DNA of 30,823 nt from a virus (lineage: Duplodnaviria > Caudoviricetes): positions 1 through 30,823 of the IMG/VR virus record IMGVR_UViG_3300016484_000186; one strand, given 5' to 3'. Each line of letters starts with the position of its first letter. Within the stretch, counting starts at the first letter, position 1. A program made the translations under genes and the position numbers. Below are positions 1-30,424 of the stretch, piece by piece. The notes below the pieces were generated by a model that made no database searches, was not told where the DNA came from, and saw nothing but the letters and a program-made list of their open reading frames with translations.

Positions 1-208
1 AGAAACAAAATTAAAATTTAGTAAAATAAGAAAAGGTATTAAACCTAAGTGTATTCCACCTGATTTTTCAAAATTATGTTTAGATACTTATACAGGAATA
101 TTTTATGATAGTTTAGTTAAAGGTTGTAAAGCTGTAAATATTAGACCAAATACAGAATTAACTAGAATTAGTAGAAAAAGTAAACTTCAAAGATTTATAT
201 ATGTCTAA
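1..208 (+). CDS. C-terminal part of a GIY-YIG/NUMOD3 homing endonuclease (continues from 30444..30823 across the window junction)
   Basis: Frame 2 reads ETKLKFSKIRKGIKPK...DTYTGIFYDSLVKGCKAVNIRPNT...RFIYV*. Joined to the window end it gives KKHSEETKLKFSKIRKG, a NUMOD3 motif, followed by a NUMOD1-like HTH tail. Confidence 0.85.
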   Translation, partial: ETKLKFSKIRKGIKPKCIPPDFSKLCLDTYTGIFYDSLVKGCKAVNIRPNTELTRISRKSKLQRFIYV

Positions 209-590
209 AAAAAATAAAAGAAGTAGTTTAATAAAAAAACTAGATAGTATATTTAGTATTTATATTAGAAAAAGTAGAAGTGATAAAAACGGAAATACAA
301 CTTGTATAACTTGTGGTAAAATTGAATATTGGAAAAATCAAGATTGTGGACATTTTATAAGTAGAAGAAATAATAGTACACGTTGGGATGAAAGAAACGT
401 TGATACTCAATGTAAATATTGCAATAGATATTGTCAGGGAAAACAATATGAATTTAGTTTAAAATTAGGTAATAAACTTTCAGAGGAATTACATATACTT
501 TCTAAACAAACAGTAAAATTATCTGATGCTGATTTAGAAGTAATGATAGAATATTATAAAAATTTAGTAAATAATTTGGAAGTTAAATAA
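201..590 (+). CDS. ninG: NinG/Rap-like recombination endonuclease
   Basis: CITCG...DCGHFISRR...TRWDERN...QCKYCNR pattern, typical of the lambda NinG family. Confidence 0.85.
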   Translation: MSKKNKRSSLIKKLDSIFSIYIRKSRSDKNGNTTCITCGKIEYWKNQDCGHFISRRNNSTRWDERNVDTQCKYCNRYCQGKQYEFSLKLGNKLSEELHILSKQTVKLSDADLEVMIEYYKNLVNNLEVK

Positions 591-605
591 AAAGTACTAT
601 CTTTG
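575..605 (+). promoter_or_regulatory. Bacteroidota sigma70 promoter (-33 TTTG, 19-nt spacer, -7 TATCTTTG)
   Basis: TTTG at 575-578 and TATCTTTG at 598-605, same spacing as the promoters at 5584 and 12448. Confidence 0.75.
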
Positions 606-607
606 TC

Positions 608-683
608 GTAGTTCTTTCGTTCTAGCAATAGAAGTTTTCTTTTAGTTAAAGGGGTAGTTATTAGTTTAGCTACCCTTTTTTTT
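608..683 (+). ncRNA. Candidate ~70-nt small antisense RNA
   Basis: Lies between a consensus promoter and an intrinsic terminator and contains no ATG. Has a UUCUA-GCAA-UAGAA GNRA hairpin (620-633) and a U-rich seed (636-648) complementary to AACTAAAAGAA upstream of four early start codons. Confidence 0.55.
648..683 (+). terminator. Rho-independent terminator
   Basis: GGGTAG(TTA)...(TAG)CTACCC stem followed by T8. Confidence 0.85.
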
Positions 684-818
684 ATAGTTATAACTTTAAA
701 AACTATATTTATATTAAAAGTTTTAAGTATATAACCTTAAAAAACTATAATATAATCAGTCTAAACCCTTATAAAATATATATAAATAAAATTTTTTAGA
801 AAAAAAAGTAAAAAATAT

Positions 819-849
819 TTTTTTTATTAAAATAATGTTTATATATTTG
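819..849 (+). promoter_or_regulatory. Early host-type promoter (-7 TATATTTG) with TTTATTAAAA spacer element
   Basis: TATATTTG at 842-849; TTTATTAAAA at 823-832 in the same position as in the 5584 and 12448 promoters; upstream A-tracts. The -33 position reads TTTT rather than TTTG. Confidence 0.65.
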
Positions 850-868
850 TGAAATAAAATTAAACTTT

Positions 869-1015
869 ATGGAAACTAGAAACGAACATTTAGAGTATAT
901 GCTATTTAGAATAGATGCTCTACAGAAAGCACTTGAAAAAGTACAATTAGAAAATTTAATGTTAAAGCAGAAACTAGAGAATAGAGATGCTACATTAGAA
1001 GTATTAACGTATAAT
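869..1015 (+). CDS. Small coiled-coil hypothetical protein (48 aa, not in ORF track)
   Basis: METRNEHLEYMLFRIDALQKALEKVQLENLMLKQKLENRDATLEVLTL*; first ORF after the promoter, with an A-rich leader. Confidence 0.7.
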
Positions 1016-1031
1016 TATAATTATTTAAACA

Positions 1032-1385
1032 ATGGAAACTAGTATTGTAAAAGTTATCACTCCTGCAGGAGAGTGGAACGGAATGAACAAACAAAAAGTT
1101 ACTTTAGCTAACGGAAAGGTAATTACTTTTTTAAGCAAAGGAGATTTTAAGGCAAATGTTGGAGATAGTATTAACTATCAAATAACAAACGAACAGTATC
1201 AAACAGGAAAGCTGTTAGGTAAGGTAGATGTACCACAAAAGAGTAATAATGCAGATATTCAATTATCTATTATTAAACAGACTTGTATTAAGGCTTCTGC
1301 AGAGTTTAATGCTCAAAGAGGAACAGTAGGCATAGAAGATGTTATTAGTGATGCAGAAATAATGTTAAATTGGATATTAAGCTAG
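1032..1385 (+). CDS. Putative OB-fold ssDNA-binding/annealing protein
   Basis: Beta-rich N-terminus and helical SIIKQTCIKASAEF tail; located next to the SSB-like and helicase genes. Confidence 0.45.
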   Translation: METSIVKVITPAGEWNGMNKQKVTLANGKVITFLSKGDFKANVGDSINYQITNEQYQTGKLLGKVDVPQKSNNADIQLSIIKQTCIKASAEFNAQRGTVGIEDVISDAEIMLNWILS

Positions 1386-1386
1386 T

Positions 1387-1671
1387 ATGGAGACAATTTT
1401 AGTAAATGGTATGATACCAAAGAAAGCTAAACACGATTTTATCGTTACAAATTTGCATATAAATGTAAATGAGTTTAGTAAGTTTTTAATCGAGCAAAAA
1501 GATTATATAGAAAAAAATAATGGTTGGTTAACTGTAGATATTTTGAAGTCTAAAAAAGACCCTGAAAAATACTATGGTAAGATAACTAAATTAGAGAAAA
1601 AAGCAGAAGTATCAGCAAGTAGCCATATGCCTGATAGAGAAGCTAAAGTAGCAGACGATTTACCATTTTAA
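1387..1671 (+). CDS. Putative single-stranded DNA-binding protein
   Basis: Ends in the acidic SSB-type tip DDLPF. Confidence 0.55.
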   Translation: METILVNGMIPKKAKHDFIVTNLHINVNEFSKFLIEQKDYIEKNNGWLTVDILKSKKDPEKYYGKITKLEKKAEVSASSHMPDREAKVADDLPF

Positions 1672-1677
1672 TAACTA

Positions 1678-1708
1678 GGGGATAGTGTAAAAAGCTATCC
1701 CTTTTTTT
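1678..1708 (+). terminator. Rho-independent terminator
   Basis: GGGATAG...CTATCCC stem followed by T7. Confidence 0.8.
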
Positions 1709-1722
1709 AAACTAAAAGAACT

Positions 1723-2637
1723 ATGTTAGTAGAAATAGACGAACAATTAAAAATCTTAAAAGATATAAGACTAGGAAACGTTAAGGAGGGTTTAAAACTT
1801 GATATACCCGAAATAGATGAGTATTTTAGATTTAAACCTACAAATATAAACGTAATACTAGGACACGCCAATGTAGGTAAGACTTCACTTATTTTATATT
1901 TAATGTTATGTTATTCTAAAAAATATGATATTAAATGGTTGGTATATACTTCAGAAAATGAAACTTACGGAACTATTAGAAAGTTAGTAGAGTATTTAAC
2001 AGAAACACCTATAAACTTAATTGATGAGTTTGAATTTAATATGCAGGTTAGTTGGATAAACGAACATTTTAAATTTATCTCAATAGACAGAACTTATACA
2101 TATAAGGAGTTATTAGATTTATGTAAAGCTGTAAAAGATGCTTGGGACTATGACGGAATATTATTAGACCCTTATAACTCAATAGCTAAAGACGGTAAAA
2201 TACTAAAAGACATTGGAGGCAATACTCACGATTACGATTATTTTGCTATGAGTGAAATGCGTATATTTTGCAAGTCAAATAAAGTAACGATGTGGATATG
2301 TGCACACCCAAGTACAGAAGCTACTAGAAAGGTACACAGAGACGGACACTATTACGCAGGACACCCTACACCACCAAATAGCTCTGATATAGAGGGAGGA
2401 GGAAAGTACGTAAATAGATGCGATGATTTTATAGTTATTCACAGGTACATTTTCCACCCTACAGATTATATGAAATCGCATATGTATTTAAGAAAGGTTA
2501 AGGAAATAGAAACAGGAGGAAGACCGAACAGCATTGATAACCCTATAGAATTAAAAGCAATTAGAAATAATGTAGGATATGAAATAGGAGGAACAAGTTT
2601 GTTAAAATTAATAGAAAGTAATAACACACCTTTTTAG
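1723..2637 (+). CDS. DnaB-like SF4 replicative helicase (no primase domain)
   Basis: Walker A GHANVGKT, catalytic TSEN, Walker B ILLDPY, CAHP, DIEGG and VIHR motifs. Confidence 0.85.
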   Translation: MLVEIDEQLKILKDIRLGNVKEGLKLDIPEIDEYFRFKPTNINVILGHANVGKTSLILYLMLCYSKKYDIKWLVYTSENETYGTIRKLVEYLTETPINLIDEFEFNMQVSWINEHFKFISIDRTYTYKELLDLCKAVKDAWDYDGILLDPYNSIAKDGKILKDIGGNTHDYDYFAMSEMRIFCKSNKVTMWICAHPSTEATRKVHRDGHYYAGHPTPPNSSDIEGGGKYVNRCDDFIVIHRYIFHPTDYMKSHMYLRKVKEIETGGRPNSIDNPIELKAIRNNVGYEIGGTSLLKLIESNNTPF

Positions 2638-2639
2638 TT

Positions 2640-3032
2640 ATGACAGAACAAGAAAAAAAAGAATATTACACGCATAAGTTAGTAACTAGCGTAATGACAG
2701 CACAGATATTAAATAATCAGTTACACGATTTAGTAGTTAATAAAGTATTTAAACAATCTGATAAGAAGCATATAAACAATGCAATTAAAATTTTAGAAAG
2801 CATAGAGAGTAAATACTATGATAAATTCTACGACAAAAAAGAGGAAAAGACTAGCGAGGTTTATGACTTTTATGAAAAATTTATTAGTACTATGGCTAAT
2901 GTGCCTATTTACGATGCTTCAGTAGTAATGATGTTGTATAAACTTTATAAGGAAACACCGAGAAAATTACAGGAATTAATAAACGAAAACTATGAAAGCG
3001 AATATCTTACGAAAATACAGAACGAAGTATAA
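2640..3032 (+). CDS. Hypothetical protein
   Basis: 130-aa ORF, tightly packed in the operon. Confidence 0.7.
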   Translation: MTEQEKKEYYTHKLVTSVMTAQILNNQLHDLVVNKVFKQSDKKHINNAIKILESIESKYYDKFYDKKEEKTSEVYDFYEKFISTMANVPIYDASVVMMLYKLYKETPRKLQELINENYESEYLTKIQNEV

Positions 3033-3198
3033 GTTAATAGAATATAACGGTACTTATTGGTTAGGAAAAAGAAACCTAACAGGGTATTATGTTATAATGG
3101 ACTATTTAAGTACTGATAAGAATTTTGCAAAGAAAGCATACAGAGAATTTATTTTAAAAGATTTAGCAAAAAGATATTACAAATGGATAATAATATAG
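2992..3198 (+). CDS. Hypothetical protein
   Basis: 68-aa ORF overlapping its neighbours. Confidence 0.55.
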   Translation: MKANILRKYRTKYKLIEYNGTYWLGKRNLTGYYVIMDYLSTDKNFAKKAYREFILKDLAKRYYKWIII

Positions 3199-3326
3199 AA
3201 AACCACAGACAAGAACTACAAGAGGAACTAAAGGAAATAAACGGAAAACTACGTTGGTTACTTAAAAGAGGTGCTAACGATGAGAATTTAGTTAATAGAA
3301 AAAGATATTTAGAAAGCCTGATATGA
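3183..3326 (+). CDS. Small hypothetical protein (47 aa, not in ORF track)
   Basis: MDNNIENHRQELQEELKEINGKLRWLLKRG...YLESLI*; ATGA overlap with the next ORF. Confidence 0.6.
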   Translation: MDNNIENHRQELQEELKEINGKLRWLLKRGANDENLVNRKRYLESLI

Positions 3327-3472
3327 GAATATATTTTAATTTAGTTAGAGGATTTGCCTTTGGGTTTATAGTTTACAAACCTAGTTACGAGTTTAACGAT
3401 GTACCTGCAGAGGATAACTATACAGATATAGATATTATATTTGGCTTTGTATCGATTAAAATTTGTTTATAA
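3323..3472 (+). CDS. Small hypothetical protein (49 aa, not in ORF track)
   Basis: MRIYFNLVRGFAFGFIVYKP...DIIFGFVSIKICL*; its TAA overlaps the ATG of the sigma factor. Confidence 0.6.
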   Translation: MRIYFNLVRGFAFGFIVYKPSYEFNDVPAEDNYTDIDIIFGFVSIKICL

Positions 3473-3963
3473 TGTTAAAGGAGTTAGGTAAAAATCACAA
3501 ACTTTGGTTAAAGTACCTTTACAGTTTAGGCTGTAGAGAATGCTGCGAGGATATAGTACAGGATATGTATATAAAAGTATATGAATATCTACAACGACAC
3601 AACAAAGATATAATGTACAATAAAGACGAAATTAACTACTATTTTATTTATATCGCTTTACAAAACCTGTACTATGACCAACTCCGTAAAAAGAAAATAG
3701 ATTTTATAGAAATAGAAGAAATAGACTTACAAGACGATGACTACATAGAAATAAATATGGATAAAGAGTTAGAGGCTATTTATGAATGGTACAACAATAA
3801 CGAGGGCAACACTCACGAATTAGAATATTATAAAAGAATATTTGAGGAAATATTTATAGAAAAAAAATCAGTTTCGGAACTATCTAGAGAGAGTAAAATT
3901 ACTTATTGGAGTTTACGAAATGCAGTTAAGATAATTAAAAAACAAATACAAGATTTAATATGA
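3472..3963 (+). CDS. ECF-like sigma70 factor (regions 2 and 4)
   Basis: EDIVQDMYIK...YIALQNLYYDQLRK (region 2) and KSVSELSRESKITYWSLRN HTH (region 4). ATG at 3472 preferred over the TTG at 3463. Confidence 0.8.
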   Translation: MLKELGKNHKLWLKYLYSLGCRECCEDIVQDMYIKVYEYLQRHNKDIMYNKDEINYYFIYIALQNLYYDQLRKKKIDFIEIEEIDLQDDDYIEINMDKELEAIYEWYNNNEGNTHELEYYKRIFEEIFIEKKSVSELSRESKITYWSLRNAVKIIKKQIQDLI

Positions 3964-4178
3964 TACCACTACACTATAAAACAGACGGAATAGATATAAT
4001 AGAATTTTGTAAAATGTATGAACTAAATTTTAACAGAGGAAATATAGTAAAGTACATTTGTAGAGCAGGTAAAAAAGATAACGAACTTCAGGACTTAAGA
4101 AAGGCTTTAGACTACTTACAAAGAGAGATAGAGCATTACGAAAAATTGCAAGAAGAATGGATAGAAAATAATAAGTAA
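3960..4178 (+). CDS. DUF3310-family protein
   Basis: PLHY...IDIIEF...FNRGNIVKYICRAGKK...DLRKALDYL signature. Confidence 0.8.
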   Translation: MIPLHYKTDGIDIIEFCKMYELNFNRGNIVKYICRAGKKDNELQDLRKALDYLQREIEHYEKLQEEWIENNK

Positions 4179-4199
4179 ATAATATAAAAAACTTGACAA

Positions 4200-4400
4200 A
4201 TGGATATAACAAAATGCAAAGGTACTGATTGTATTATTAAAGAAAAATGCATTAGATATACAGCAAAAGAAACGCCTGAATATCAATCGTGGTTTGTAGA
4301 TATACCTTTTAAAATTAAAGATAATGAATTTACTTGCGATATGTATTGGGGAGAAAATTCACAAAATATTTTTAATGTATTAGGTAAAATAATTAAATAA
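4200..4400 (+). CDS. Small Cys-rich hypothetical protein
   Basis: DITKCKGTDC..KEKC.RY...C..YW; four Cys, possibly Zn-binding. Confidence 0.7.
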   Translation: MDITKCKGTDCIIKEKCIRYTAKETPEYQSWFVDIPFKIKDNEFTCDMYWGENSQNIFNVLGKIIK

Positions 4401-4425
4401 CTATTATAAAACTAATTAAAGAAAA

Positions 4426-4584
4426 ATGATACAGTCTATAGATAAATTTTATTTAAAAAAAGTTAAAAGAATGTACCAAGACGAGCCGTACTTACAATGT
4501 ATATACACAAATGGTATAGAAAGTAAAATAATAGCAGTCAAATTTGGAGAGGATATAAAAAGCGTAATATATGAAATTGGGTAA
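4426..4584 (+). CDS. Small hypothetical protein (52 aa, not in ORF track)
   Basis: MIQSIDKFYLKKVKRMYQDEPYLQC...VIYEIG*; A-rich leader. Confidence 0.5.
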   Translation: MIQSIDKFYLKKVKRMYQDEPYLQCIYTNGIESKIIAVKFGEDIKSVIYEIG

Positions 4585-4717
4585 CATATTAGAAAGTATT
4601 TTTAAGTACACAGGAGTACGATTTATAGTAAAAGGTATTAGTAATTGGCTAGGGATAGATTGTGGCTGTAATGAGAGAAAAGAAGCCTTAAATAACATAT
4701 TCAGAAATGGAAAGTAA
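4571..4717 (+). CDS. Small hypothetical protein with DCGC motif (48 aa, not in ORF track)
   Basis: MKLGNILESIFKYTGVRFIVKGISNWLGIDCGCNERKEALNNIFRNGK*. Confidence 0.7.
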   Translation: MKLGNILESIFKYTGVRFIVKGISNWLGIDCGCNERKEALNNIFRNGK

Positions 4718-4922
4718 AGATTATTTTAAATGGTTAGATTTTATTAGCAAAACGAGTAACACTATAGACCATACAGAATATATGTTAGTTATGGAGTTAC
4801 ACGCTAAATACTTTAATCATAAATTTAAAAAGCTATGTAAGTGTAAAGGAAGTGCTATACAAAAGTGGATAGACGAATTAAACGAATTTTTTGAAAAAAG
4901 CCCAAAGCCAAAAATTAGATGA
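4707..4922 (+). CDS. Hypothetical protein (CxC motif)
   Basis: 71-aa ORF containing LCKCKGS. Confidence 0.65.
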   Translation: MESKDYFKWLDFISKTSNTIDHTEYMLVMELHAKYFNHKFKKLCKCKGSAIQKWIDELNEFFEKSPKPKIR

Positions 4923-5320
4923 TAAATAAAATTAAACAATGGGAATTAGCTACCATAGGAGTACTTAATTTAGACGGTTGGGACTTACAACCTAGTAATG
5001 AATTTGATTGCTACGATGCGATAGGATATACTCCTAAAGGTATTAAATGCGTAATAGAAATGAAGTTTAGAAATGATTATTACGAAACTAAAATGCTAGA
5101 AGTAGATAAATACAATAGTTTAATGAAATTAGAGGAATATGTAAAAATATACTTTGTTAATGATGCAAAGGGAAATTATATGTTTTGGCTAGATAATATA
5201 ATAATGCCTACTCCTGTTTGGATAAAAGCACCTAAAACTACTATGTGGAATAATCAAAATGTAAGCAAAAATGTTTATATGTTACCTGAGGGAAAGGCTA
5301 CTATAATTAATCGGTATTAA
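4919..5320 (+). CDS. PD-(D/E)XK-fold nuclease-like protein
   Basis: YDAIG...VIEMKFR catalytic-type motif. Confidence 0.6.
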   Translation: MINKIKQWELATIGVLNLDGWDLQPSNEFDCYDAIGYTPKGIKCVIEMKFRNDYYETKMLEVDKYNSLMKLEEYVKIYFVNDAKGNYMFWLDNIIMPTPVWIKAPKTTMWNNQNVSKNVYMLPEGKATIINRY

Positions 5321-5583
5321 TGGATAAGTTTATAAATAAAATTTTACACTATAGTATAAATAAAGTTTTATATTTATTTAATAGATGTATAACAGCTAAT
5401 ACTGTTTATTATATAGGTAACATTGGTAATGATTGGAAAATTATAAAAAAATATAAAGATTATTTCGAGATAAGTTACAATGTTTTAAGTAAAACAGAAA
5501 ACAAGAATATCTATAAAATAGATAAGCAAATAAGGTTGTTTAAGTATAATTACAAAAAAATTTAAAAAAAAGTTTAAATTTAT

Positions 5584-5614
5584 TTTGTTTATTAAAAAAC
5601 TTTTAATATCTTTG
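5584..5614 (+). promoter_or_regulatory. Early host-type promoter (-33 TTTG, -7 TATCTTTG)
   Basis: TTTG at 5584-5587, 19-nt spacer, TATCTTTG at 5607-5614. Confidence 0.8.
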
Positions 5615-5643
5615 TACCATAATAATTAAAACTAAAAGAAATT

Positions 5644-5841
5644 ATGGAAACAAAAAATTTTATTACAAAAGAATTTAAAAGAAGAGAAGAACTAGTAATG
5701 GATATTGAATTTAGAAAAATAGTAGCAAAACACGCAGAAAATATAGGTATAAGTGCTGAGGAATGGAACAAAAATAAAATGACTATATTATTGTATTTTG
5801 CAAATGAATTTTGCTCTATAGAGAATAAAAATAATAATTAA
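5644..5841 (+). CDS. Hypothetical early protein
   Basis: 65 aa; first gene after the promoter. Confidence 0.7.
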   Translation: METKNFITKEFKRREELVMDIEFRKIVAKHAENIGISAEEWNKNKMTILLYFANEFCSIENKNNN

Positions 5842-5890
5842 ATAAAACAGGGGTGCGACTGTAACGAATATTAATTTTAAACTAAAAGAA

Positions 5891-6253
5891 ATGACAAAAG
5901 AATTTTTATACGAAAAGTTAGTTAAAAGCATAGAAAAAAATGTTTTACTAGAACATAGAATAAATGATTTAGAAAAAAAAAATTATGAATTAGGAATTAT
6001 TATAAATGAAAAAGATAATAAAATATCTAGTTTAAATTTAGAAATAAGTGCTATTACAGGTAATATTATAAATAAAAATACAGAAGTTATTTTAGAAAAT
6101 GAAACTAAATATACTTATGATATAGTAGAAAATAATTACATTGTTAGAAGAGCAAAACATACAGATTTAGAAGAGAACTTATTTGATAATATAGAAAGTA
6201 TTTTAAAATTAGCAAAAAGAGAAAATTATAACATAAAATTTAAACTAAAATGA
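5891..6253 (+). CDS. Hypothetical coiled-coil protein
   Basis: 120 aa with a heptad-rich N-terminus. Confidence 0.65.
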   Translation: MTKEFLYEKLVKSIEKNVLLEHRINDLEKKNYELGIIINEKDNKISSLNLEISAITGNIINKNTEVILENETKYTYDIVENNYIVRRAKHTDLEENLFDNIESILKLAKRENYNIKFKLK

Positions 6254-6447
6254 GAACTGAATTTATCGACTATTTAGATGTAGAATTTGAGGTAGAGTAT
6301 TATACTACTTCAGGAGAAGAAGAAACAGGAATACCTGCCTGTTATGAAGTTACAAATGTTTACATAAATAATGTATGTGTAACAGATGTATTAAATGAAA
6401 AAGTATTAGAAAGACTAGAAGATGAACTAACTAAAAGAATATGCTAA
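6250..6447 (+). CDS. Hypothetical acidic protein
   Basis: 65 aa; ATGA overlap with the upstream gene. Confidence 0.7.
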   Translation: MRTEFIDYLDVEFEVEYYTTSGEEETGIPACYEVTNVYINNVCVTDVLNEKVLERLEDELTKRIC

Positions 6448-6602
6448 CAAAGGACACTTGGTATGCTGTACTAGAAGAGATTAGAAAGTATGCACAAACA
6501 GACAAAGAACTAACTCACATTAACCTAGAAATTAAAATAAGAAAAAATAGTTGGGGAGATAAAAAAATAAGTACTTGTAAAATTAATTTAACTAAAGATT
6601 AG
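6441..6602 (+). CDS. Small hypothetical protein (53 aa, not in ORF track)
   Basis: MLTKDTWYAVLEEIRKYAQTDKELTHINLEIKIRK...KINLTKD*; fills the gap before the exonuclease. Confidence 0.65.
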   Translation: MLTKDTWYAVLEEIRKYAQTDKELTHINLEIKIRKNSWGDKKISTCKINLTKD

Positions 6603-6607
6603 AAATT

Positions 6608-7378
6608 ATGATTAAAACGCTAGACGGAAAGAATTGGGAAGAAAAAGAACTATTAGACAATATGTACGATGATAGTTTTTATTACGGTTATTTAGGTAAG
6701 TATGCTTTTAGTAGCAGCTCTTTAAAGCTGTTATTAGATAGTCCAAAGACTTACAAATATGTAACTCAATACGGAAACGAAGAGAGCCAAGCATTAAGAG
6801 ACGGAAAACTGTTTCATACTTTAATACTAGAGCCAAATAAATTAGAAAGCTATCACTTTGTAGATGTAGCTAGTAAGAATACAAAAGCGTATCAGGAAGC
6901 TAAAAAAGAAAACGAGAATGTATTTACAACAAAGGAGTTAAAAGATGCAGAGAGATTAGCAGATGCGATTTATAAAAACGAAGAGGCAAAGAGTTTACTA
7001 GTTAAGTCAGAATTTGAAATACCTGCTATCGGAACTCTATACGGATACCCTTTTAGAGCTAAAGCAGACATATTAAAACCAAATGCTATTGTAGATTTAA
7101 AAACTACTACCGATGTAAATAACTTTTATTTATCAGCAAAGAAATATAAATACGCTTTACAGGTTTATATATATTGTCAGTTGTTTAATGTAGAGTATAA
7201 AGACTTTACTTTTTTATGTGTAGATAAAAGCAATTTAGATTTAGGTATTTTTACCTGTAGTCAGGACTTTTATTTTCAGGGAGAGGAAATGTTAGAGAGA
7301 GCAATTAGCATTTATAAAAAATACTTTGAACAAGACGGAATAGATATTAACGATTATATAATTAAAGGAGAATTGTAA
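6608..7378 (+). CDS. PD-(D/E)XK exonuclease, RecE/exonuclease VIII-like
   Basis: SSSSLK...GKLFHTLILEP...RAKADIL...IVDLKTT...YALQVYIY. Confidence 0.85.
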   Translation: MIKTLDGKNWEEKELLDNMYDDSFYYGYLGKYAFSSSSLKLLLDSPKTYKYVTQYGNEESQALRDGKLFHTLILEPNKLESYHFVDVASKNTKAYQEAKKENENVFTTKELKDAERLADAIYKNEEAKSLLVKSEFEIPAIGTLYGYPFRAKADILKPNAIVDLKTTTDVNNFYLSAKKYKYALQVYIYCQLFNVEYKDFTFLCVDKSNLDLGIFTCSQDFYFQGEEMLERAISIYKKYFEQDGIDINDYIIKGEL

Positions 7379-7391
7379 AAACAAATAAGAT

Positions 7392-7628
7392 ATGGAAATA
7401 AACCACGATAAAGGAAAAACAGTAGGAGAAAGTTTAGGGCTAGATTTAAACTTTATGAAAGACCTAGACGAAAAATTTACAGATGCTGTACATTATAGCA
7501 TAGGAGTAGAGTTAAAAACAGAAATTGTAGAGTATGTTTTAAATAATTTTAGTTACAATGAATTAGTAATTATAGCTACAAAATACATAGACGAAGTATC
7601 AGTAGATTATATAAACAATAACTTATGA
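7392..7628 (+). CDS. Hypothetical protein
   Basis: 78-aa ORF. Confidence 0.65.
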   Translation: MEINHDKGKTVGESLGLDLNFMKDLDEKFTDAVHYSIGVELKTEIVEYVLNNFSYNELVIIATKYIDEVSVDYINNNL

Positions 7629-7693
7629 TAATAGGTATAGTAATAACAGGAGTATATTTTATAACAATAGTATTAATTAGCAAAATAGATTAA
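7625..7693 (+). CDS. 22-aa single-TM micropeptide (not in ORF track)
   Basis: MIIGIVITGVYFITIVLISKID*; ATGA-coupled to the upstream gene and ends 2 nt before the next ATG. Confidence 0.5.
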   Translation: MIIGIVITGVYFITIVLISKID

Positions 7694-7695
7694 AA

Positions 7696-8136
7696 ATGAT
7701 AGTAAAAGAAACGATTAGAGAACAAAAGACAGTAAGTAAGTATTTACAGGTAGCAAATAGGGTAAACAAACTTTTAAACGTAAATGTATTCGATAACAAA
7801 AGAACATTAGATTTGGTAGATGCTAGAAGCGTAACTTGTTATATATTAAACAAATACTACGGAGGTACGTTACATAGTATAGCAGACTTCTTTAAAACAA
7901 ACGGAAAAAGATTTGACCATAGTACAGTTTATTATAATATACAACTATTTGAGAGAGAAGTAAAAGTAAGAAGAAAAGATATAGACGAAAACTTAATGTA
8001 TTTAATAGGTACTATAGACTACAATACACACCTAAACATAGTACTAGATACTGTATTAAGCGATGAGGACAAAGAACGTATTATAAAGATAGTAAATAGA
8101 TTAGCACATAAATATTACAAAAAAAGCGTTATATAG
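7696..8136 (+). CDS. DnaA domain IV-like (Bac_DnaA_C) HTH DNA-binding protein
   Basis: R..DLVDAR...TLHSIADFF...FDHSTVYY resembles the DnaA C-terminal RDHTTV helix. Confidence 0.7.
   Translation: MIVKETIREQKTVSKYLQVANRVNKLLNVNVFDNKRTLDLVDARSVTCYILNKYYGGTLHSIADFFKTNGKRFDHSTVYYNIQLFEREVKVRRKDIDENLMYLIGTIDYNTHLNIVLDTVLSDEDKERIIKIVNRLAHKYYKKSVI
8127..8135 (+). promoter_or_regulatory. Putative late promoter -10 element CGTTATATA
   Basis: Motif recurs at 13535, 20881, 22635 and 24799, each in front of a late operon. Confidence 0.65.
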
Positions 8137-8138
8137 TT

Positions 8139-8798
8139 ATGAAAGTATTAAATTTATATGCTTGTCTAGGAGGAAACAGATACAAGTGGGATGAAGTAGC
8201 AAAAGAAGCAGGAATAGAAATAGAAGTTACTGCTGTTGAATTAGACGAAGAAGCTGCAAGATTATATCAAGAACGCTTCCCTAATGATAAAGTAATAGTT
8301 GCAGATGCACACAAATATTTATTAGATAATTTTAAAGAATTTGATTTTATTTGGAGTAGTCCACCCTGTCCTACACATAGTAAAGCAAGATATTGGGGTT
8401 TTGGTAAAAATGGTTTAAAACCTTGTTATCCTGATATGAAATTATATGAAGAAATAATTTTTTTAAAATATCATTTTTTTGGAAAATGGGTAGTTGAAAA
8501 TGTAAACCCTTATTATGAGCCTATGTTCAATCCTATACAAAAAGAAAGACATACATATTGGAGTAATTTTAAATTTCCAAATGTATTAAGTAATAGAAAT
8601 GATACAGCTTTAGTACAAGCATCACGCATTCAAGATTTATGTGATTTTCACGATTACGATTTTAGAAAATATAAAGGAAAACAAAGACTTTTAAAAATGG
8701 CACGTAATTTAGTAGACTATGAAGCAGGAAGAACTATTTTTGAAACAGCTTTAGGAATTATAAAAAAGAAAGATAGTAAGCAAATAGAATTATTTTAA
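8139..8798 (+). CDS. C5 DNA cytosine methyltransferase (short form)
   Basis: Motif I VLNLYACLGG, motif IV SPPCP, motif VI VVENV. Confidence 0.85.
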   Translation: MKVLNLYACLGGNRYKWDEVAKEAGIEIEVTAVELDEEAARLYQERFPNDKVIVADAHKYLLDNFKEFDFIWSSPPCPTHSKARYWGFGKNGLKPCYPDMKLYEEIIFLKYHFFGKWVVENVNPYYEPMFNPIQKERHTYWSNFKFPNVLSNRNDTALVQASRIQDLCDFHDYDFRKYKGKQRLLKMARNLVDYEAGRTIFETALGIIKKKDSKQIELF

Positions 8799-8799
8799 T

Positions 8800-9372
8800 A
8801 TGAAAGTAGAAATTAGCAAATTAAAAAGTAACGAAAACAATCCACGTTACATTAAAGATGAAAACTTTAAAAAGTTAGTAAAGTCAATTAAAGAGTTTCC
8901 GCAGATGTTAGAACTTCGCCCTATAGTAGTAGATAGCGAAATGGTTGTACTTGGTGGAAATATGCGTTTAAAGGCTTGTATAGAAGCAGGACTAAAAGAA
9001 GTACCTGTAGTTATAGCCGATACGCTAACAGAAGAACAAAAAAAAGAATTTATAATCAAAGATAATGTAGGATATGGCGAATGGGATTGGGATATATTAG
9101 CTAATGAATGGGATAACGAACTATTAACAGAATGGGGTTTAGATGTTTGGCAACCTGAAGCTGATGTAGATTATTCTTTATTAGACGATGAAGAAGAAAT
9201 AGACGGCTTATTAGACGATATGTCAAACGGAGTAAAAAAAGCTATACAAATTGAATTTGAAGCAGAACACTATGAACAGGCTTATGAGTTAGTTAAGTTT
9301 TGGAGAGAGAGAGATGCTTATGTAGGTGGTATGATTATGGAATATTTAAAAGATGAAAAAGATAAATTATGA
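8800..9372 (+). CDS. ParB/Srx N-terminal domain protein
   Basis: NPR...LVKSIKEF...RPIVVD...VLGGNMRLKA...DN; acidic linker and small C-terminal domain. Confidence 0.85.
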   Translation: MKVEISKLKSNENNPRYIKDENFKKLVKSIKEFPQMLELRPIVVDSEMVVLGGNMRLKACIEAGLKEVPVVIADTLTEEQKKEFIIKDNVGYGEWDWDILANEWDNELLTEWGLDVWQPEADVDYSLLDDEEEIDGLLDDMSNGVKKAIQIEFEAEHYEQAYELVKFWRERDAYVGGMIMEYLKDEKDKL

Positions 9373-10100
9373 TTTGTTTTATACCTACAAAAGGAAGAGT
9401 TAAAACAAAGACTTATAAATTATTTCTTGACGCTGGTATTGATGTAATTCATTTTATTGAGCCAAAAGAATTTGATTTATATGATGTACCAAATAAAGTG
9501 TCAATACTCAAAAATGATATGGGTATTGCATATGTACGCAATTTTATGTTGGAATATGCAAAAAAAAACAATCACGAATGGGTGATTATGTGTGATGATG
9601 ATGTAGACCATTTCGGTGTTTATAATAATGGTAATATTAAAAAAGATGCAAATATTTGGCACGAAATAAAACAAAAAGTTGAAAAATTACCATTTGAATT
9701 AATTGGTATAAATTATAGACAATTAGCTTGGACTGAAAAAACTAATTATTCTATAAATAAAAGATTTGTTGAAGTATGCGTTCTTTTTAATATTAATAGA
9801 ATAAAATGGGTTTATAGGTCAGAATTTAATATGAAAGAGGATAGAGATTTTTCAATGCAAACAATACAAAAAGGAAATGGAATTTTAAGATTTAATAAAT
9901 ATTTTTATAATTGCCCAGACGTAGGAACAAATCCTGGAGGATTACAAGAAGAATATAAATCTAAAAAAGATGAAGAAACTGCTTTTAAAATGTGCAGAGA
10001 ATGGAATCCATTTGTTACTTTGAAAAAAAAAGGAAACCGTATTGATATAAAAGCCGATTTAAAATCATTAGCAAAATATTATAAAAAAATAATAAAATGA
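9369..10100 (+). CDS. TET-associated (GREB1-like/TAGT) GT-A fold glycosyltransferase
   Basis: FIPTKGR, GIAYVRNF, MCDDD (DxD), KEDRDF and GG motifs; adjacent to TET/JBP. Confidence 0.75.
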   Translation: MICFIPTKGRVKTKTYKLFLDAGIDVIHFIEPKEFDLYDVPNKVSILKNDMGIAYVRNFMLEYAKKNNHEWVIMCDDDVDHFGVYNNGNIKKDANIWHEIKQKVEKLPFELIGINYRQLAWTEKTNYSINKRFVEVCVLFNINRIKWVYRSEFNMKEDRDFSMQTIQKGNGILRFNKYFYNCPDVGTNPGGLQEEYKSKKDEETAFKMCREWNPFVTLKKKGNRIDIKADLKSLAKYYKKIIK

Positions 10101-10906
10101 AAAAATTAGAATTAGTAAAGTTAGAACACAATGTAAAAGTAGGAGACGTATGCGAATACATAGAGCCTAACGTAACAGAAGATACTTTGTTTTTAGAAAA
10201 TGGAGAGCCAATAGGTTTTTTCATTAAAGATATTTCAAAGTATTCTGAAAAAGCTAGTAAATTAGCAGATTTAGCAAACACTGAATTAAGGAGTAAAAAT
10301 GTACCTAAAACAGAAATGAGCAGAGGTCCACAAGGAAGTAAAAAAGATAAAATAGAAAGAATTAAAAAAGGAATTAATTTAGTAACACAATACAGTACTA
10401 TTTTAGGAAGCGTACCACCAAAGCCACATATGAGAAGACCATATCCAACTATATCTAGTGTGCATAGTGTTAAAACAGCTCAAACTTTTATAAAAGCTAT
10501 GTATAAACTTTGTTTAGAGAGTGAAGAAATAATAAAGCAAATAGCACCAAATATATATGATAAACAAAAAAAGATATTTGACGAGCAAGTAGATAAAAAA
10601 TGGAAGTTCGGAAACTTATTTACAAGTTCTATCTCTAACTTTAATATAGCAGCAGGTTTTCACGTTGATAATGGAAATATAAAAGACTGTGTAAATGTTA
10701 TTATAACAAAAAGACAAAATAGTAAAGGAGGTTGTACAACAGTACCTGACTATAATGCCACTATGGATAGCTGTGATAATTCTATATTAGTTTACCCTGC
10801 TTGGAAAAATATACACGGAGTAACACCTATTATACCAACTCACGAGGGTGGATATAGAAATAGTTTAGTATTCTATCCTTTAAAAGCATTTGTAGGACTT
10901 AAATAA
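10097..10906 (+). CDS. TET/JBP-family 2OG-Fe(II) dioxygenase
   Basis: FTSSISNFN...FHVDNGN (HxD), IHGVTP (distal His), RNSLVFY (2OG-binding Arg). Confidence 0.85.
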   Translation: MKKLELVKLEHNVKVGDVCEYIEPNVTEDTLFLENGEPIGFFIKDISKYSEKASKLADLANTELRSKNVPKTEMSRGPQGSKKDKIERIKKGINLVTQYSTILGSVPPKPHMRRPYPTISSVHSVKTAQTFIKAMYKLCLESEEIIKQIAPNIYDKQKKIFDEQVDKKWKFGNLFTSSISNFNIAAGFHVDNGNIKDCVNVIITKRQNSKGGCTTVPDYNATMDSCDNSILVYPAWKNIHGVTPIIPTHEGGYRNSLVFYPLKAFVGLK

Positions 10907-10913
10907 AATAAAT

Positions 10914-11264
10914 ATGAATAAACAAAATTCAACATTAAAAAAGGCAATGTTAGAAGCATTAGAGAAATCTTTAGGAGTTGTAACAACAGCCTGTAAACAA
11001 GTTGGTATAGATAGAGGTACGCATTATAATTGGTTAAAGAATGACGAGGAGTATAAAGAGCAAGTAAAGAATTTAGAAAATGTAGTATTAGATTTTGCAG
11101 AGAGCCAATTACATAAACAAATTTTAGACGGAAATACAACAGCTACAATATTTTTATTAAAGACAAAAGGTAAGAGCAGAGGTTATATAGAAAGACAAGA
11201 AATAGTAACAGATACAGATAACTTTTTTAAAGTAGAAATAATAGATGCAGAAGATAAAGACTAA
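10914..11264 (+). CDS. terS: Terminase small subunit
   Basis: HTH GVVTTACKQVGIDRGTHYNW and GNTTATIFLLKTKGKSRGYIER; directly upstream of TerL. Confidence 0.8.
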   Translation: MNKQNSTLKKAMLEALEKSLGVVTTACKQVGIDRGTHYNWLKNDEEYKEQVKNLENVVLDFAESQLHKQILDGNTTATIFLLKTKGKSRGYIERQEIVTDTDNFFKVEIIDAEDKD

Positions 11265-12399
11265 TATAGTTTTTAAGCACCTTAACGCTTCAAATAAGCG
11301 AATAACTATAGAGCAGGGAGGTACTCGTTCAGGAAAAACATATAATATCCTTATATGGCTTATATTTGATTATTGTGCAAATAACAAAGGTAAGATAGTA
11401 ACTGTGGCGAGAAAGACTTTCCCTGCTTTACGTACTTCTGCTATGCGTGATTTTTTCGAGATATTAAGAACGTATAACATATATAGCGAGGAATACCACA
11501 ACAAATCTAATTCAGAATATTACTTAAACGGAAACCTAGTAGAGTTTATTAGTTTAGACCAACCTACAAAGGTAAGAGGTAGAAAAAGAGATTTACTTTA
11601 CGTTAATGAAGCTAACGAGTTATTTTGGGAAGATTGGCAGCAATTAGTATTTAGAACAAAAGAAAAAATAATAATAGATTATAACCCTAGTGACGAGTTT
11701 CATTGGATATATGATAAGGTAAAGACTAGAGAAGATGCAGACTTTTATATTACAACGTATAGAGACAATCCTTTTTTAGACGATGAGATAAAAAAAGAAA
11801 TAGAACGGTTAAAAGAAACAGACGAGAATTATTGGAATGTTTACGGACTAGGTTTGACAGGACAAAGTAAGTCATTAATATTTAGAATTAACGAAACAAA
11901 AGAAATACCAAAAGAAGCAAAGTTTTTAGCATACGGTATGGACTTTGGTTTTACTAACGACCCTACTACTTTAGTTGCTGTATATCAGTCAGGAGATAAC
12001 TTATATTTTGATGAACTAATATACCAAACAGGTTTAACCAATACGGATATATCAAATAAGTTAAAGGAGTTAGGAATAGATAAAAGAGCAGAGATATACG
12101 CAGATGATGCAGAGCCAAAAAGTATAGAAGAGTTATACCGTATGGGTTGGAATGTAAAAGAAGCTAAAAAGAAAGAGGTTAATTTAGGAATTGATATAAT
12201 GAAGCGTTATAGTTTATACTGTACTAGCAATTCTACCAATATGATAAAAGAATTTAAGAACTATAAATGGATAGAAGATAAGAACAGCAATATATTAAAC
12301 AAGCCTGTAGATATGTTTAATCACTCTATAGATGCTATTCGTTATGTATGTTATAATAAAATGAGTAGGCCAAACTATGGAAGATATGCTATAAGATAG
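11245..12399 (+). CDS. terL: Terminase large subunit (PBSX/Terminase_3-like)
   Basis: Walker A GGTRSGKT, Walker B YVNEANE, DYNP, nuclease GMDFGF and NHSIDAIRY. Confidence 0.95.
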   Translation: MQKIKTNIVFKHLNASNKRITIEQGGTRSGKTYNILIWLIFDYCANNKGKIVTVARKTFPALRTSAMRDFFEILRTYNIYSEEYHNKSNSEYYLNGNLVEFISLDQPTKVRGRKRDLLYVNEANELFWEDWQQLVFRTKEKIIIDYNPSDEFHWIYDKVKTREDADFYITTYRDNPFLDDEIKKEIERLKETDENYWNVYGLGLTGQSKSLIFRINETKEIPKEAKFLAYGMDFGFTNDPTTLVAVYQSGDNLYFDELIYQTGLTNTDISNKLKELGIDKRAEIYADDAEPKSIEELYRMGWNVKEAKKKEVNLGIDIMKRYSLYCTSNSTNMIKEFKNYKWIEDKNSNILNKPVDMFNHSIDAIRYVCYNKMSRPNYGRYAIR

Positions 12400-12447
12400 T
12401 GTATTTACTAGGAAAGTAAAAAAAAATAAAAAAAAATTAAAAAAAGT

Positions 12448-12478
12448 TTTGTTTATTAAAAAATTGTTTATATCTTTG
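12448..12478 (+). promoter_or_regulatory. Early host-type promoter (-33 TTTG, -7 TATCTTTG)
   Basis: TTTG at 12448-12451, 19-nt spacer, TATCTTTG at 12471-12478; upstream A-tracts. Confidence 0.8.
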
Positions 12479-12504
12479 TCAAAGAAATTTAAAATAAACT
12501 AAAA

Positions 12505-12711
12505 ATGGAAAACTTATTAAGCAAATCAGTAGAAGAAAGAGCAATACAATTAATAATTAATGGAATTGATACTTTAGAAGCTATTAAACAAGCTATAAAT
12601 GAAGAGCAAGATTTAATAGAAGAAATGATAGCTCAAAATACAGAACGTTCTAAAAAAGCTAAAAATACTATTTGTAAAAATGTTTATGGTTTAATTCACT
12701 TAATATCTTAA
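12505..12711 (+). CDS. Hypothetical protein
   Basis: 68 aa; first gene after the promoter. Confidence 0.7.
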   Translation: MENLLSKSVEERAIQLIINGIDTLEAIKQAINEEQDLIEEMIAQNTERSKKAKNTICKNVYGLIHLIS

Positions 12712-12713
12712 TT

Positions 12714-12947
12714 ATGGGCTTTGAAACATTAGTTAGTATTTGTAAAAAATGTAATGGAACTATAATAAAAACAGGTAAAATAATATCAAGTAGATGTAAA
12801 TGTAATAAAATGGAAAACTTAAAAGAACTAAAAAAAGAATTAACGTTAACTCAAATAGATATGTTAATTTCATTAGCTGAATTATCAGACAGAATATATG
12901 AAAAAAATAAACTAGAAGAAATAAAGAACTATATTTTAAATAACTAA
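12714..12947 (+). CDS. Hypothetical protein (start uncertain; internal ATG at 12810 also plausible)
   Basis: N-terminal CKKC...CKC, then MENLKELKKE with its own A-rich leader. Confidence 0.55.
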   Translation: MGFETLVSICKKCNGTIIKTGKIISSRCKCNKMENLKELKKELTLTQIDMLISLAELSDRIYEKNKLEEIKNYILNN

Positions 12948-12950
12948 AAA

Positions 12951-13097
12951 ATGGAAATAGGAACTAGATATAAATTTACAGACGGTACTATAGGAACTTT
13001 AAGACAGACTAATAAAAACTTTGGTTTATTTATATTTGAAAACGGAAAACAATTTGTATTTAATTTGAATAACTTAAAAGAAAAAAATATATTATGA
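12951..13097 (+). CDS. Small beta-rich hypothetical protein (48 aa, not in ORF track)
   Basis: MEIGTRYKFTDGTIGTLRQTNKNFGLFIFENGKQFVFNLNNLKEKNIL*. Confidence 0.65.
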   Translation: MEIGTRYKFTDGTIGTLRQTNKNFGLFIFENGKQFVFNLNNLKEKNIL

Positions 13098-13219
13098 AAA
13101 CAACAGCTTTAATTTTAGGAACTATAGGACTAGGGTTAGAAAATACCCTAGCTACTTTCGGAATACTTATAGTAATGGGTATAATAGTTTATATAGATTA
13201 TCAAAATGAGCAGAGATAA
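13094..13219 (+). CDS. Small membrane protein (41 aa, not in ORF track)
   Basis: MKTTALILGTIGLGLENTLATFGILIVMGIIVYIDYQNEQR*; ATGA overlap. Confidence 0.6.
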   Translation: MKTTALILGTIGLGLENTLATFGILIVMGIIVYIDYQNEQR

Positions 13220-13451
13220 AAGATTTGTAGCTTTAAAATGGTGTCATAACAACGGTATTATTATTTACCCTGTTACAGATTTAACAGCACCAAAGTATAG
13301 TTTAGGAAAACGTAATATACAGAAAGTACAAATAGAAATAAACAACAAAGGTAAAATAAGCAAAGATAAAAAGTGGTATAAACAAGACGAGGAATTATCT
13401 AATAAGATAACAGAATACTATTTATTTTACTATGATAGATATAATAAGTAA
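13206..13451 (+). CDS. Hypothetical protein
   Basis: 81 aa; ALKWCHNNGIIIYPV. Confidence 0.7.
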   Translation: MSRDKRFVALKWCHNNGIIIYPVTDLTAPKYSLGKRNIQKVQIEINNKGKISKDKKWYKQDEELSNKITEYYLFYYDRYNK

Positions 13452-13480
13452 TTAAGTTAAGTTTGGTTTGTTTTTAAATT

Positions 13481-13509
13481 GGGTAGCTAGAAATAGTTAC
13501 CCTTTTTTT
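13481..13509 (+). terminator. Rho-independent terminator
   Basis: GGGTAGCTA-GAAA-TAGTTACCC followed by T7. Confidence 0.9.
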
Positions 13510-13534
13510 ATGCTCACAAATAGCCTTTTAGAAA

Positions 13535-13543
13535 CGTTATATA
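13535..13543 (+). promoter_or_regulatory. Putative late promoter -10 element CGTTATATA
   Basis: Repeated motif, located after a terminator and before the tail operon. Confidence 0.7.
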
Positions 13544-13554
13544 AATAAAAATAT

Positions 13555-14232
13555 ATGAAAGTAAGTATTAATATACCTGATAACTTAAGCGAGATAACTT
13601 TAGAGCAGTACCAAAAGTATTTAAAAATAGTGGAGCAGAATAAGCATATAGAAAATGCAGAAACTTTTTTAGAGTTAAAAATGATTGAAGTATTTTGTCA
13701 TATACCATATTCAGAAGCTATAAAAATTAAGTATAAGGATATTAAATACATAGTTAATCACATAGGAGGTTTATTACAGCAAAAGCCTGAATTAGTTAAA
13801 GGATTTAAGATAGGAGAAAAAAACTTTGGTTTCGTTACTAATTTAGACGAACTTACTTTTGACGAGTACACTACACTAGATACAAACATATCTAATTTAG
13901 ATAATATGCATATAGCTATGGCTGTATTGTATAGACCGATAAAATCAGGAAGCTATAGTAGTAAATACATACTAGAAGACTACGAAATTAAAAAGTATTG
14001 GGAAGTAATGAAGTATATGCCTTTAGATGCTGTTTTTAGTTCGTTGGTTTTTTTTTATCATTTAGGGATAGAATTATCGAAAGCTACCCTGAAATATTTG
14101 CAGACAGAGGAAATACAGACGAGTTTTCAGCAAGAACTCAATTTAGTACAAAATGGGGTTGGTATAACTCAATTTACCGACTTGCTTCAGGAGATATTAC
14201 CAAGTTTGGAGAAGTCGCAAAACTTAATATAA
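13555..14232 (+). CDS. Putative tail assembly chaperone (0-frame product)
   Basis: First gene of the tail operon; contains a G-GTT-TTT-TTT slippery run at 14046-14056. Confidence 0.6.
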   Translation: MKVSINIPDNLSEITLEQYQKYLKIVEQNKHIENAETFLELKMIEVFCHIPYSEAIKIKYKDIKYIVNHIGGLLQQKPELVKGFKIGEKNFGFVTNLDELTFDEYTTLDTNISNLDNMHIAMAVLYRPIKSGSYSSKYILEDYEIKKYWEVMKYMPLDAVFSSLVFFYHLGIELSKATLKYLQTEEIQTSFQQELNLVQNGVGITQFTDLLQEILPSLEKSQNLI

Positions 14233-14315
14233 ATGAGTGCTTATATTATTTAGCATATAAGGCAGAGTTAGACGAATTAGAACAAAACGAAATTAAAAAA
14301 CAATTTAAGAAATGA
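14055..14315 (+). CDS. -1 frameshift extension of the tail chaperone (fusion about 253 aa)
   Basis: 86 open codons LSFRDRIIESYPEIF...KWGWYNSIYRLASGDITKF...KQFKK* with no own ATG; its TGA overlaps the next ATG. Confidence 0.75.
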   Translation, partial: LSFRDRIIESYPEIFADRGNTDEFSARTQFSTKWGWYNSIYRLASGDITKFGEVAKLNINECLYYLAYKAELDELEQNEIKKQFKK

Positions 14316-14788
14316 TAACTAACGAATTTGGTTTACAGAACTTTTACAAAATAACGGATATGATAAAAGATAATTTTATAGATAGTCCGTATGTAAATAC
14401 TGTAACGTATGGTAATATATTTGACATAGATTTAAGCAAACAAACTATATTTCCTTTAACTCACGTACAAGTTAATACAGCTACACATAACGAAAATGTA
14501 ATTACATATAACATTACTATTATGAATATGGATTTAGTAGATATTAGCAAAGAAGCACCTGCAGATATTTACTATGGTAACGATGATTTACATAATGTAT
14601 ATAATACGCAATTAGCTGTTATTAATAAATTCATTCAAGAAGTAAATAGAGGTTTTATAGGTAGAGACGGTTTCCAATTAAACGGACAACCTACAAGTGA
14701 AGCGTTTATGGATAGGTTTGAAAATTTATTAGCAGGTTGGGTTACTACTATTAATATAGATGTTGCGAACAATATATCAGTATGCTAG
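14312..14788 (+). CDS. Putative tail terminator/completion protein
   Basis: Size, position and IFPLTHV motif in a beta-rich protein. Confidence 0.55.
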   Translation: MITNEFGLQNFYKITDMIKDNFIDSPYVNTVTYGNIFDIDLSKQTIFPLTHVQVNTATHNENVITYNITIMNMDLVDISKEAPADIYYGNDDLHNVYNTQLAVINKFIQEVNRGFIGRDGFQLNGQPTSEAFMDRFENLLAGWVTTINIDVANNISVC

Positions 14789-30376: not shown

Positions 30377-30416
30377 CGTTCTTTATTATATAATTATTAT
30401 ATATAAATATATTTAT

Positions 30417-30424
30417 TATATTTG
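30417..30424 (+). promoter_or_regulatory. Possible host-type -7 element TATATTTG
   Basis: TAnnTTTG 20 nt upstream of the endonuclease ATG; no clear -33. Confidence 0.45.

Follow-up and report, generated by a model that had tools for sequence, protein, structure and literature searches.

A U-rich segment behind ninG co-varies with helicase and early-gene starts in uncultured aquatic phages, pointing to a trans-acting antisense RNA

In an uncultured, aquatic 31-kb phage, we identified an element at the 3′ end of ninG that, judged from its sequence and those of its relatives, is a real, selected feature and most likely a trans-acting antisense RNA whose targets are replication and early genes of the same phage. 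The window, meaning the stretch of DNA analysed, is the whole virus record of 30,823 bases. We propose that a 74-nt RNA is made from the 3′ end of ninG and that its seed likely pairs in trans with the starts of the helicase and early genes, which would block their translation. Promoter boxes, a terminator, complementarity and a fixed place behind ninG across the clade were seen directly, as were the joint change of seed and helicase leader and the restriction of the matches to sense-strand starts of replication and early genes.

Family searches found NinG (201–590) and a helicase (1723–2637), along with exonuclease, DNA-modification, terminase, portal, tail and lysis genes. On the plus strand, ninG encodes a ninG/rap junction endonuclease (PF05766, E 4.5e-12; phrog_5034, E 5.9e-26), and the gene at 1723–2637, the conserved main target of the predicted RNA, a replicative helicase of the DnaB/primase-helicase-like kind (phrog_18375, E 1.3e-36; phrog_19, E 5.6e-14). 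PDB searches with both helicase types returned no match. Searches with NinG and the helicase found no cultured close relative. The best matches of both proteins among annotated phages were mostly Flavobacteriaceae phages, and from these matches and the promoter type we infer a Bacteroidota host. Among 57 proteins of the window and 91 of its relatives, none matched an integrase or repressor family, many small ORFs having no family at all, in agreement with the sequence-only reading, which had recognised neither.

Several other features of the record are of note. Genes for a C5 methylase and for ParB-like, glucosyltransferase-like and queuine tRNA-ribosyltransferase-like proteins form a DNA-modification cluster at 8139–10906, which suggests modified bases. 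A CGTTAT motif at 8127, 13535, 20881, 22635 and 24799 lies 12–25 nt before ORFs 8139, 13555, 20893, 22658 and 24811, and ORF 3463–3963 weakly matches a sigma-factor family (phrog_1740, E 3e-4); the two are possibly a late promoter and a phage sigma factor. A very AT-rich, ORF-free stretch at 30300–30420, which separates the lysis genes from a promoter at 30417, is a candidate replication origin. ORF 30444–30823 leaves the end of the record towards ninG and has no Pfam match; by eye it resembles a homing endonuclease.

The promoter of the predicted RNA is present exactly as the sequence-only reading had claimed. A -33-type box TTTG (575–578, plus strand), inside the end of ninG, is followed after 19 nt by a -7 box, TATCTTTG (598–605, plus strand), of the TAnnTTTG type whose consensus is given in the available text of PMC6847099. 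Because transcription from Flavobacterium johnsoniae promoters starts 4–5 nt after the -7 box (PMC6847099, partial text), the RNA is expected at about 610–683 on the plus strand, giving a predicted length of ~74 nt with no ORF. The interval between promoter and terminator does lack an ATG, and the strong terminator proposed for the end of the element was confirmed as an intrinsic terminator at 648–683 (plus strand), with a 13-pair stem at 648–679 and a U tract. It is one of seven terminator-type sites observed in positions 1–15000, where 2.3 are expected. The element lies in the 3′ region of ninG and shares this terminator with the gene. Early promoters at 824–849, 5589–5614 and 12453–12478 carry a common extended block, TTATTAAAA, upstream of the -7 box; it is absent from the promoter of the RNA and present again in two relatives (L004 and L006).

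The small-RNA layout first proposed stood only in part. The terminator is accompanied by a U-rich seed at 636–648 (plus strand; core 637–647), the exact complement of the target 11- to 12-mers, and the fold z of 608–685 is -4.4, the terminator contributing most. The GCAA-capped 5-bp hairpin at 620–633, supposed to leave the seed free, is doubtful: ViennaRNA predicts it at P ~0.23, against ~0.64 for an alternative hairpin in which the seed is partly paired, and gives an unpaired probability of 0.2–0.6 over 639–647. This minority fold of the window is the minimum-energy fold of the homologous hairpin in L004, the closest relative among the matches listed, and the alignment of these two sequences holds one two-sided change. 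The 5′ segment 610–617, complementary to 1715–1722 in the helicase leader and kept in L004, is possibly a second seed; the co-fold optimum does not use it. A pattern search of viral contigs for the 5′ part of the RNA matched the L004 contig only. Elsewhere, at the end of the third early cassette (13458–13509), a second -7-like box stands with a U-rich stretch and a terminator, and own-leader matches to this unit were not in excess (37 vs 36.5).

The 11-mer complementary to the seed core has five copies in the window. One is on the minus strand (637–647, the seed itself); the other four are on the plus strand and lie 2, 3, 0 and 1 nt before the ATGs at 1723, 5644, 5891 and 6441, respectively. 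The exact reverse complementarity, the positions of the four start-codon sites and the 12-bp extensions before ORFs 5644, 5891 and 6441 all hold as first read. The helicase site (1710–1720, plus strand) covers -13 to -3 of the start, with a predicted co-fold of -12.9 kcal/mol (rank 2 of 60 leaders), and directly follows a predicted plus-strand terminator at 1677–1709. The remaining exact sites, also plus-strand, precede ORF 5644 (5630–5641; exact 11-mer within the 12-bp match, also found by co-folding), a 65-aa ORF of no family that is the first gene after the early promoter at 5607; ORF 5891 (5880–5891; 120 aa; rank 1 of 60), where the site reaches the A of the AUG; and ORF 6441 (6428–6439; rank 3 of 60), where it falls within the end of ORF 6250. 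Eight-nucleotide plus-strand sites were found at the start of ORF 6250 (6243–6250; rank 4 of 60), before ORF 12505 (12497–12504; rank 7 of 60), the first gene past the early promoter at 12471, and, weakly, before ORF 12951 (12942–12949; -8.1 kcal/mol). With accessibility included, predicted binding of the RNA places the four exact targets and ORF 6250 in the first five ranks among the 60 window leaders. The start of late ORF 22458 (22433–22470) is predicted to pair with the RNA nearly as well as the early targets (rank 6 of 60).

The 7-nt core AACTAAA is present in 8 of 60 ORF leaders, all before position 13000. These include the leaders of ORFs 6250, 6608, 12505 and 12951, for which weaker versions of the motif had been proposed, and none of the structural-gene leaders, so that the motif is not equally common before late genes. 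In 1000 dinucleotide shuffles of the leaders, at most 2 leaders carried the motif, compared with 4 observed. Shuffling the RNA instead, at least four leaders were matched in 21 of 2000 trials, so the window alone, at p ~0.01, is suggestive only. That value is one point in favour of chance or composition, whereby a U-rich terminator tail would merely meet the generic A-rich leaders of Bacteroidota. Counts in a host-like comparison set, 41 genomes of the order to which a Flavobacteriales MAG belongs, argue against it: the motif followed by an ATG occurs 57 times in their summed ~106 Mb, compared with 4 times in the 31-kb window, a ~240-fold lower density, and a reversed-motif control gave 45, close to 57. 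The motif is thus more than the generic A-rich leader.

Relatives were collected through NinG alignments, as the best 80 of ~3500 matching stretches in viral contigs and the best 80 of ~1200 in metagenome contigs, with 7 further loci from genomes and 6 earlier ones; the sample is biased to close relatives and includes duplicates. It comprised 171 sequences with a NinG match, the window included, of which 3 had too little downstream DNA and were dropped, leaving 168 evaluable. Among the matches listed, a terminator follows within 140 nt of the ninG stop in 159 of these 168 loci, and five of the nine loci where none was called are distant MAG contigs. The 35 nt before the ninG terminator have a T fraction of 0.54, compared with 0.39 before other terminators, and their sequence varies between lineages. 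Whole contigs were taken for 25 loci. Grouping the NinG proteins at 80% identity yielded 51 clusters; the 40 that had 20 ORFs or more were kept as lineages, and 11 were dropped. Also left out were the nine loci without a called terminator and L018, where another element intervenes: ninG and the U-rich segment are separated there by a GC-richer stretch of ~100 nt (2999–3110) that carries a hairpin and a U tract of its own. A prophage search with one genome per species gave 7 loci, all MAG contigs, among which L085 alone is a close relative carrying the element. Two cultured phages with distant NinG proteins, hattifnatt9-1 and P12002L, have no room for it, the next gene beginning 5 and 1 nt past the stop, respectively.

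The U-rich segment of each lineage was scored against the leaders of every lineage. Among the matches listed, own leaders ranked first for the own segment in 12 of the 40 lineages and within the top three in 17, a result as strong appearing in 0 of 20,000 permutations (p<5e-5). Relatives therefore keep segments that match their own leaders, not just terminators lacking such a seed, and the seed/target covariation that the sequence-only reading had suggested as a check is borne out. At internal ATGs the own-genome excess was much weaker (rank 1 in 4 of 40, p 0.011). Segments before 76 other terminators scored +0.4, compared with +4.6 for 33 ninG terminators (p 6e-6). Among gene clusters with at least 5 members, the helicase had the largest excess (+2.2 nt, n=29). 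A ParB-like gene came next (n=5), then an AAA_25 ATPase (n=11); the excess was also high for a DNA methylase (n=7) and for an Erf-like annealing protein (n=19), and structural genes were near zero. The AAA_25 ATPase (Pfam) replaces the helicase in 11 of 40 lineages (L025, L029, L032, L038, L055, L057, L059, L063, L073, L149 and L151), mostly at the helicase's gene position. Covariation with the RNA is seen in the leader of this ATPase as well (p 0.0005).

At the helicase leader, predicted duplex energies were -12.5 kcal/mol with the own segment and -8.0 kcal/mol with those of other lineages (0 of 50,000 permutations, p<2e-5). Clearly different seed and helicase-leader sequences occur in the window and in L006, L009, L012, L060, L072, L084, L095, L107 and L145, and for the distinctive seeds of L060, L084, L095, L107 and L145 the own helicase leader ranks 1–2 of 40 in each case. 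In a swap test on 46 nearest-neighbour pairs (fewer independent ones, since some reuse near-identical lineages), 35 favoured the own partner by more than 0.5 kcal/mol, with 8 ties and 3 against (Wilcoxon p 5e-8). Leaders of Erf, one unnamed early gene and ninG itself also co-varied with the segment in this test, and the exonuclease leader was borderline (0.049). Control leaders (portal, capsid, endolysin, a sigma-like cluster, ORF 4919 and ORF 7696) showed no own preference (p 0.09–0.86). The helicase-position leader is in the top 4 for only 16 of the 40 lineages; in several of the 24 outside, the helicase starts immediately next to the preceding gene or to a terminator. The own-versus-other tests, the host-like counts, the control on other terminators and the ranks of the distinctive seeds together make chance or composition extremely improbable; the first of these largely refutes it, and the remaining point in its favour is a small own-genome excess at non-start sites.

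The matches also depend on strand and position. Own 10-mer matches on the sense strand numbered 67 against 20.5 at annotated starts (3.3-fold), 57 against 33 at other ATGs and 115 against 87 elsewhere, and same-sense copies of the segment were not enriched at starts (57 vs 49.7). This distribution bears on a DNA-level origin of the pattern, in which the sequence is a lineage-specific protein-binding site (such as an operator in the DNA) of which one copy is inverted, or a leader cassette that was duplicated within each genome and inverted once. Such an origin would fit the absence of a G·U excess, and the early promoters and leaders do have common blocks at 842, 5607 and 12471, so duplication could explain several copies. 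The matches, however, are strand- and position-specific and tied to start codons, not promoters; the inverted copy always lies between the ninG stop and the terminator; and bulges at the AUG or at an internal hairpin interrupt the predicted duplexes of L038, L059, L072, L084 and L123. We consider a DNA-level origin very unlikely indeed. A boxA- or NusG-pause-like reading of the U-rich tract was set aside because it predicts no co-change with helicase leaders.

The trans-acting antisense RNA of the sequence-only reading is supported in part, by its complementarity, its covariation, its non-generic motif and its promoter and terminator; less favourable are a seed predicted to be partly paired and the lack of an excess of G·U, which would be a mark of RNA pairing, among mismatches at match edges (0.144 own vs 0.160 other, over 215 edge mismatches). 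Pairing beyond the exact core had a better energy (mean z -0.4) with no higher number of base pairs at equal core length; as this gain may reflect C/G content, we excluded it from the support.

We next consider whether the segment acts from a separate RNA. Of the 40 lineages, 16 have a TAnnTTTG box 12–75 nt ahead of the terminator, compared with a background of 4.6%, and 12 of these 16 have a TTG 17–24 nt upstream of the -7 box (background 9.8%). As in the window, the -33 TTG falls mostly within the end of ninG, and the RNAs predicted for promoter-bearing lineages are ~50–75 nt long, often with a small internal hairpin, which carries a two-sided change between L020 and L123. With accessibility included, these 16 RNAs favour their own helicase-position leader (-11.0 vs -6.3 kcal/mol). 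Two freshwater RNA runs from one study held 6–7% of words, with contigs from a relative (mostly 90–99% alike); no RNA contig covers 598–821, and since the contigs are the relative's and unable to reveal small RNAs, this is no evidence either way.

In the 24 of 40 lineages that have no promoter box, the element may simply be the ninG 3′UTR. It is then conceivable that there is no separate small RNA in any lineage, and that the segment works as the 3′UTR of the ninG message, which would pair both with other transcripts and with the start region of ninG itself, as in the 5′–3′UTR pairing of icaR. In the 24 box-less lineages the helicase-position leader of the own genome is still preferred (mean -2.8 kcal/mol, p 0.002), and the ninG leader co-varies with the segment (z -4.2), ranking first in 5 of the 38 lineages listed, both as such a 3′UTR would predict. 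In L004, L058, L072, L084 and L107 the segment also matches the start of ninG best, and autoregulation of ninG is possible there. Against a 3′UTR alone stand the -7 boxes of the window and 15 other lineages, the -33 TTG in 12 of these 16, the stronger pairing where a promoter is present (-5.1 vs -2.8, p 0.03) and the rank of the window's own ninG leader, only 8 of 40. We judge it unlikely as a general account. The weaker co-variation of the box-less lineages fits a 3′UTR form, and there the same seed would be supplied by the 3′UTR of the ninG mRNA, whole or processed.

For the window, we favour a separate RNA with the following mode of action. Host polymerase would start near 610 and stop near 683, and the seed would pair with positions -13 to -3 relative to the helicase start, as well as with the like sites of other early genes. 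In F. johnsoniae, A-3, A-6, A-12 and A-13 favour initiation (PMC6847099, partial text), and because the helicase site covers all four positions, repression is a better expectation than activation. Pairing would keep ribosomes from loading on the target leaders, and as the RNA accumulates it would cap the synthesis of helicase and early proteins, serving as a repressor-free brake or timer on replication.

The pairing may instead be real and have another effect, with early mRNAs stabilised or activated, or with the leaders titrating the RNA or altering ninG termination. Covariation shows complementarity but leaves the sign of the effect undecided; the seed borders on the terminator stem, and another terminator stands immediately before the helicase site. 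Set against this, the sites cover the adenines that favour initiation in the available text of PMC6847099 and often reach or cross the AUG, the remaining three sites of the window have no adjoining terminator, and the gene after ninG has its own promoter at 842. Such a different outcome appears very unlikely to us, and repression remains our preferred reading.

Rfam gave no match at gathering score in the window, the best hit within 400–900 reaching 20 bits against a cut-off of 45. The CI RNA of phage P4 is a comparable phage antisense RNA. Membership of the C4 or CI families was ruled out, as no covariance model matched and the folds give at most one small hairpin and the terminator. In the available text of PMC5320573, the C4 RNA of P1 and P7 is likewise ~75 nt long and trans-encoded, with short antisense segments over phage ribosome-binding regions, and a few changed bases set its specificity between related phages, as in the predicted RNA. 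C4, as described there, folds into three stem-loops with its antisense segments in the loops, is released through cleavage by RNase P and functions in lysogeny; in the window, by contrast, an RNA running from promoter to terminator is predicted to act on several unlinked targets including the helicase, in a phage where no integrase or repressor was found.

In its build the element resembles the type I 3′UTR-derived sRNA, which, in the portion of PMC7821165 available, also has a promoter within or just after a coding sequence, a terminator in common with the mRNA and a trans action. At the sequence level the window agrees with the promoter arrangement of this class, its boxes lying around the ninG stop ahead of the terminator at 648–683, as do 16 of 40 lineages in all, and the seed is complementary to distant targets and kept so by covariation, as expected of a trans-encoded base-pairing sRNA. 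Unlike the examples in that partial text, it is phage-encoded, in a probable Bacteroidota host without Shine-Dalgarno use; its predicted targets are the phage's own replication and early genes, seed and targets are re-written together, and it is known from sequence. The same source describes a 3′UTR segment of Staphylococcus aureus icaR that is complementary to a translation start (PMC7821165, partial text). Pairing of this type with ninG's own leader may occur in some lineages, and, unlike in icaR, the main match here is to other transcripts.

Small RNAs that limit the synthesis of a replication protein through its mRNA leader are also known from plasmids, such as RNAI of pT181 and of pSK41; these are counter-transcribed from the target locus, which makes complementarity automatic (PMC5703833, partial text). 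The predicted RNA, unlike them, is on the same strand at a distance of ~1.1 kb and has to change in step with several targets. With its exact targets 1.1–5.8 kb away on the same strand, a plasmid-type counter-transcribed copy-number RNA was ruled out. Among phages, sar of P22, OOP and aQ of lambda, PreS, VpdS and 24B_1 tune phage development post-transcriptionally, sar by blocking translation initiation as proposed here; their targets are a single regulator or host genes, and most of them belong to temperate phages of Proteobacteria (PMC12197685, partial text). In the set reviewed there, so far as that text was available, no phage sRNA is directed at a start motif shared by its own helicase and early genes. 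Among the papers listed in our searches, which covered few subscription journals, none described the element; it could be included in the candidate lists of viral structured-RNA screens (PMC10690425 and PMC8040213).

The rapid divergence of the RNA raises a further reading, which we put forward tentatively and regard as rather unlikely: it could be a self-recognition code that silences the helicase and early genes of any phage bearing the same leader motif. The outcome would be superinfection exclusion specific to the lineage, or a carrier state under copy control. On this tentative reading, the repeated joint change of seed and leaders would be explained by related phages excluding one another. 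If true, joint re-writing would be an escape from the RNAs of relatives, an RNA equivalent of immunity or incompatibility groups in widespread aquatic Bacteroidota phages without repressor or integrase.

Covariance-model searches miss such an RNA because its sequence is not fixed and it has little structure, and the own-versus-other test offers a general way to find others. The natural seed and leader pairs form a ready-made swap panel for Flavobacterium johnsoniae and could serve as orthogonal RNA switches for Bacteroidota. For the phages themselves, the antisense RNA that we consider most likely would amount to translation control without Shine-Dalgarno sequences, in which a private sequence is written into the A-rich start region and its mirror image kept by the phage, and would mean that replication in a large clade of uncultured phages is under the control of a circuit that needs no protein.
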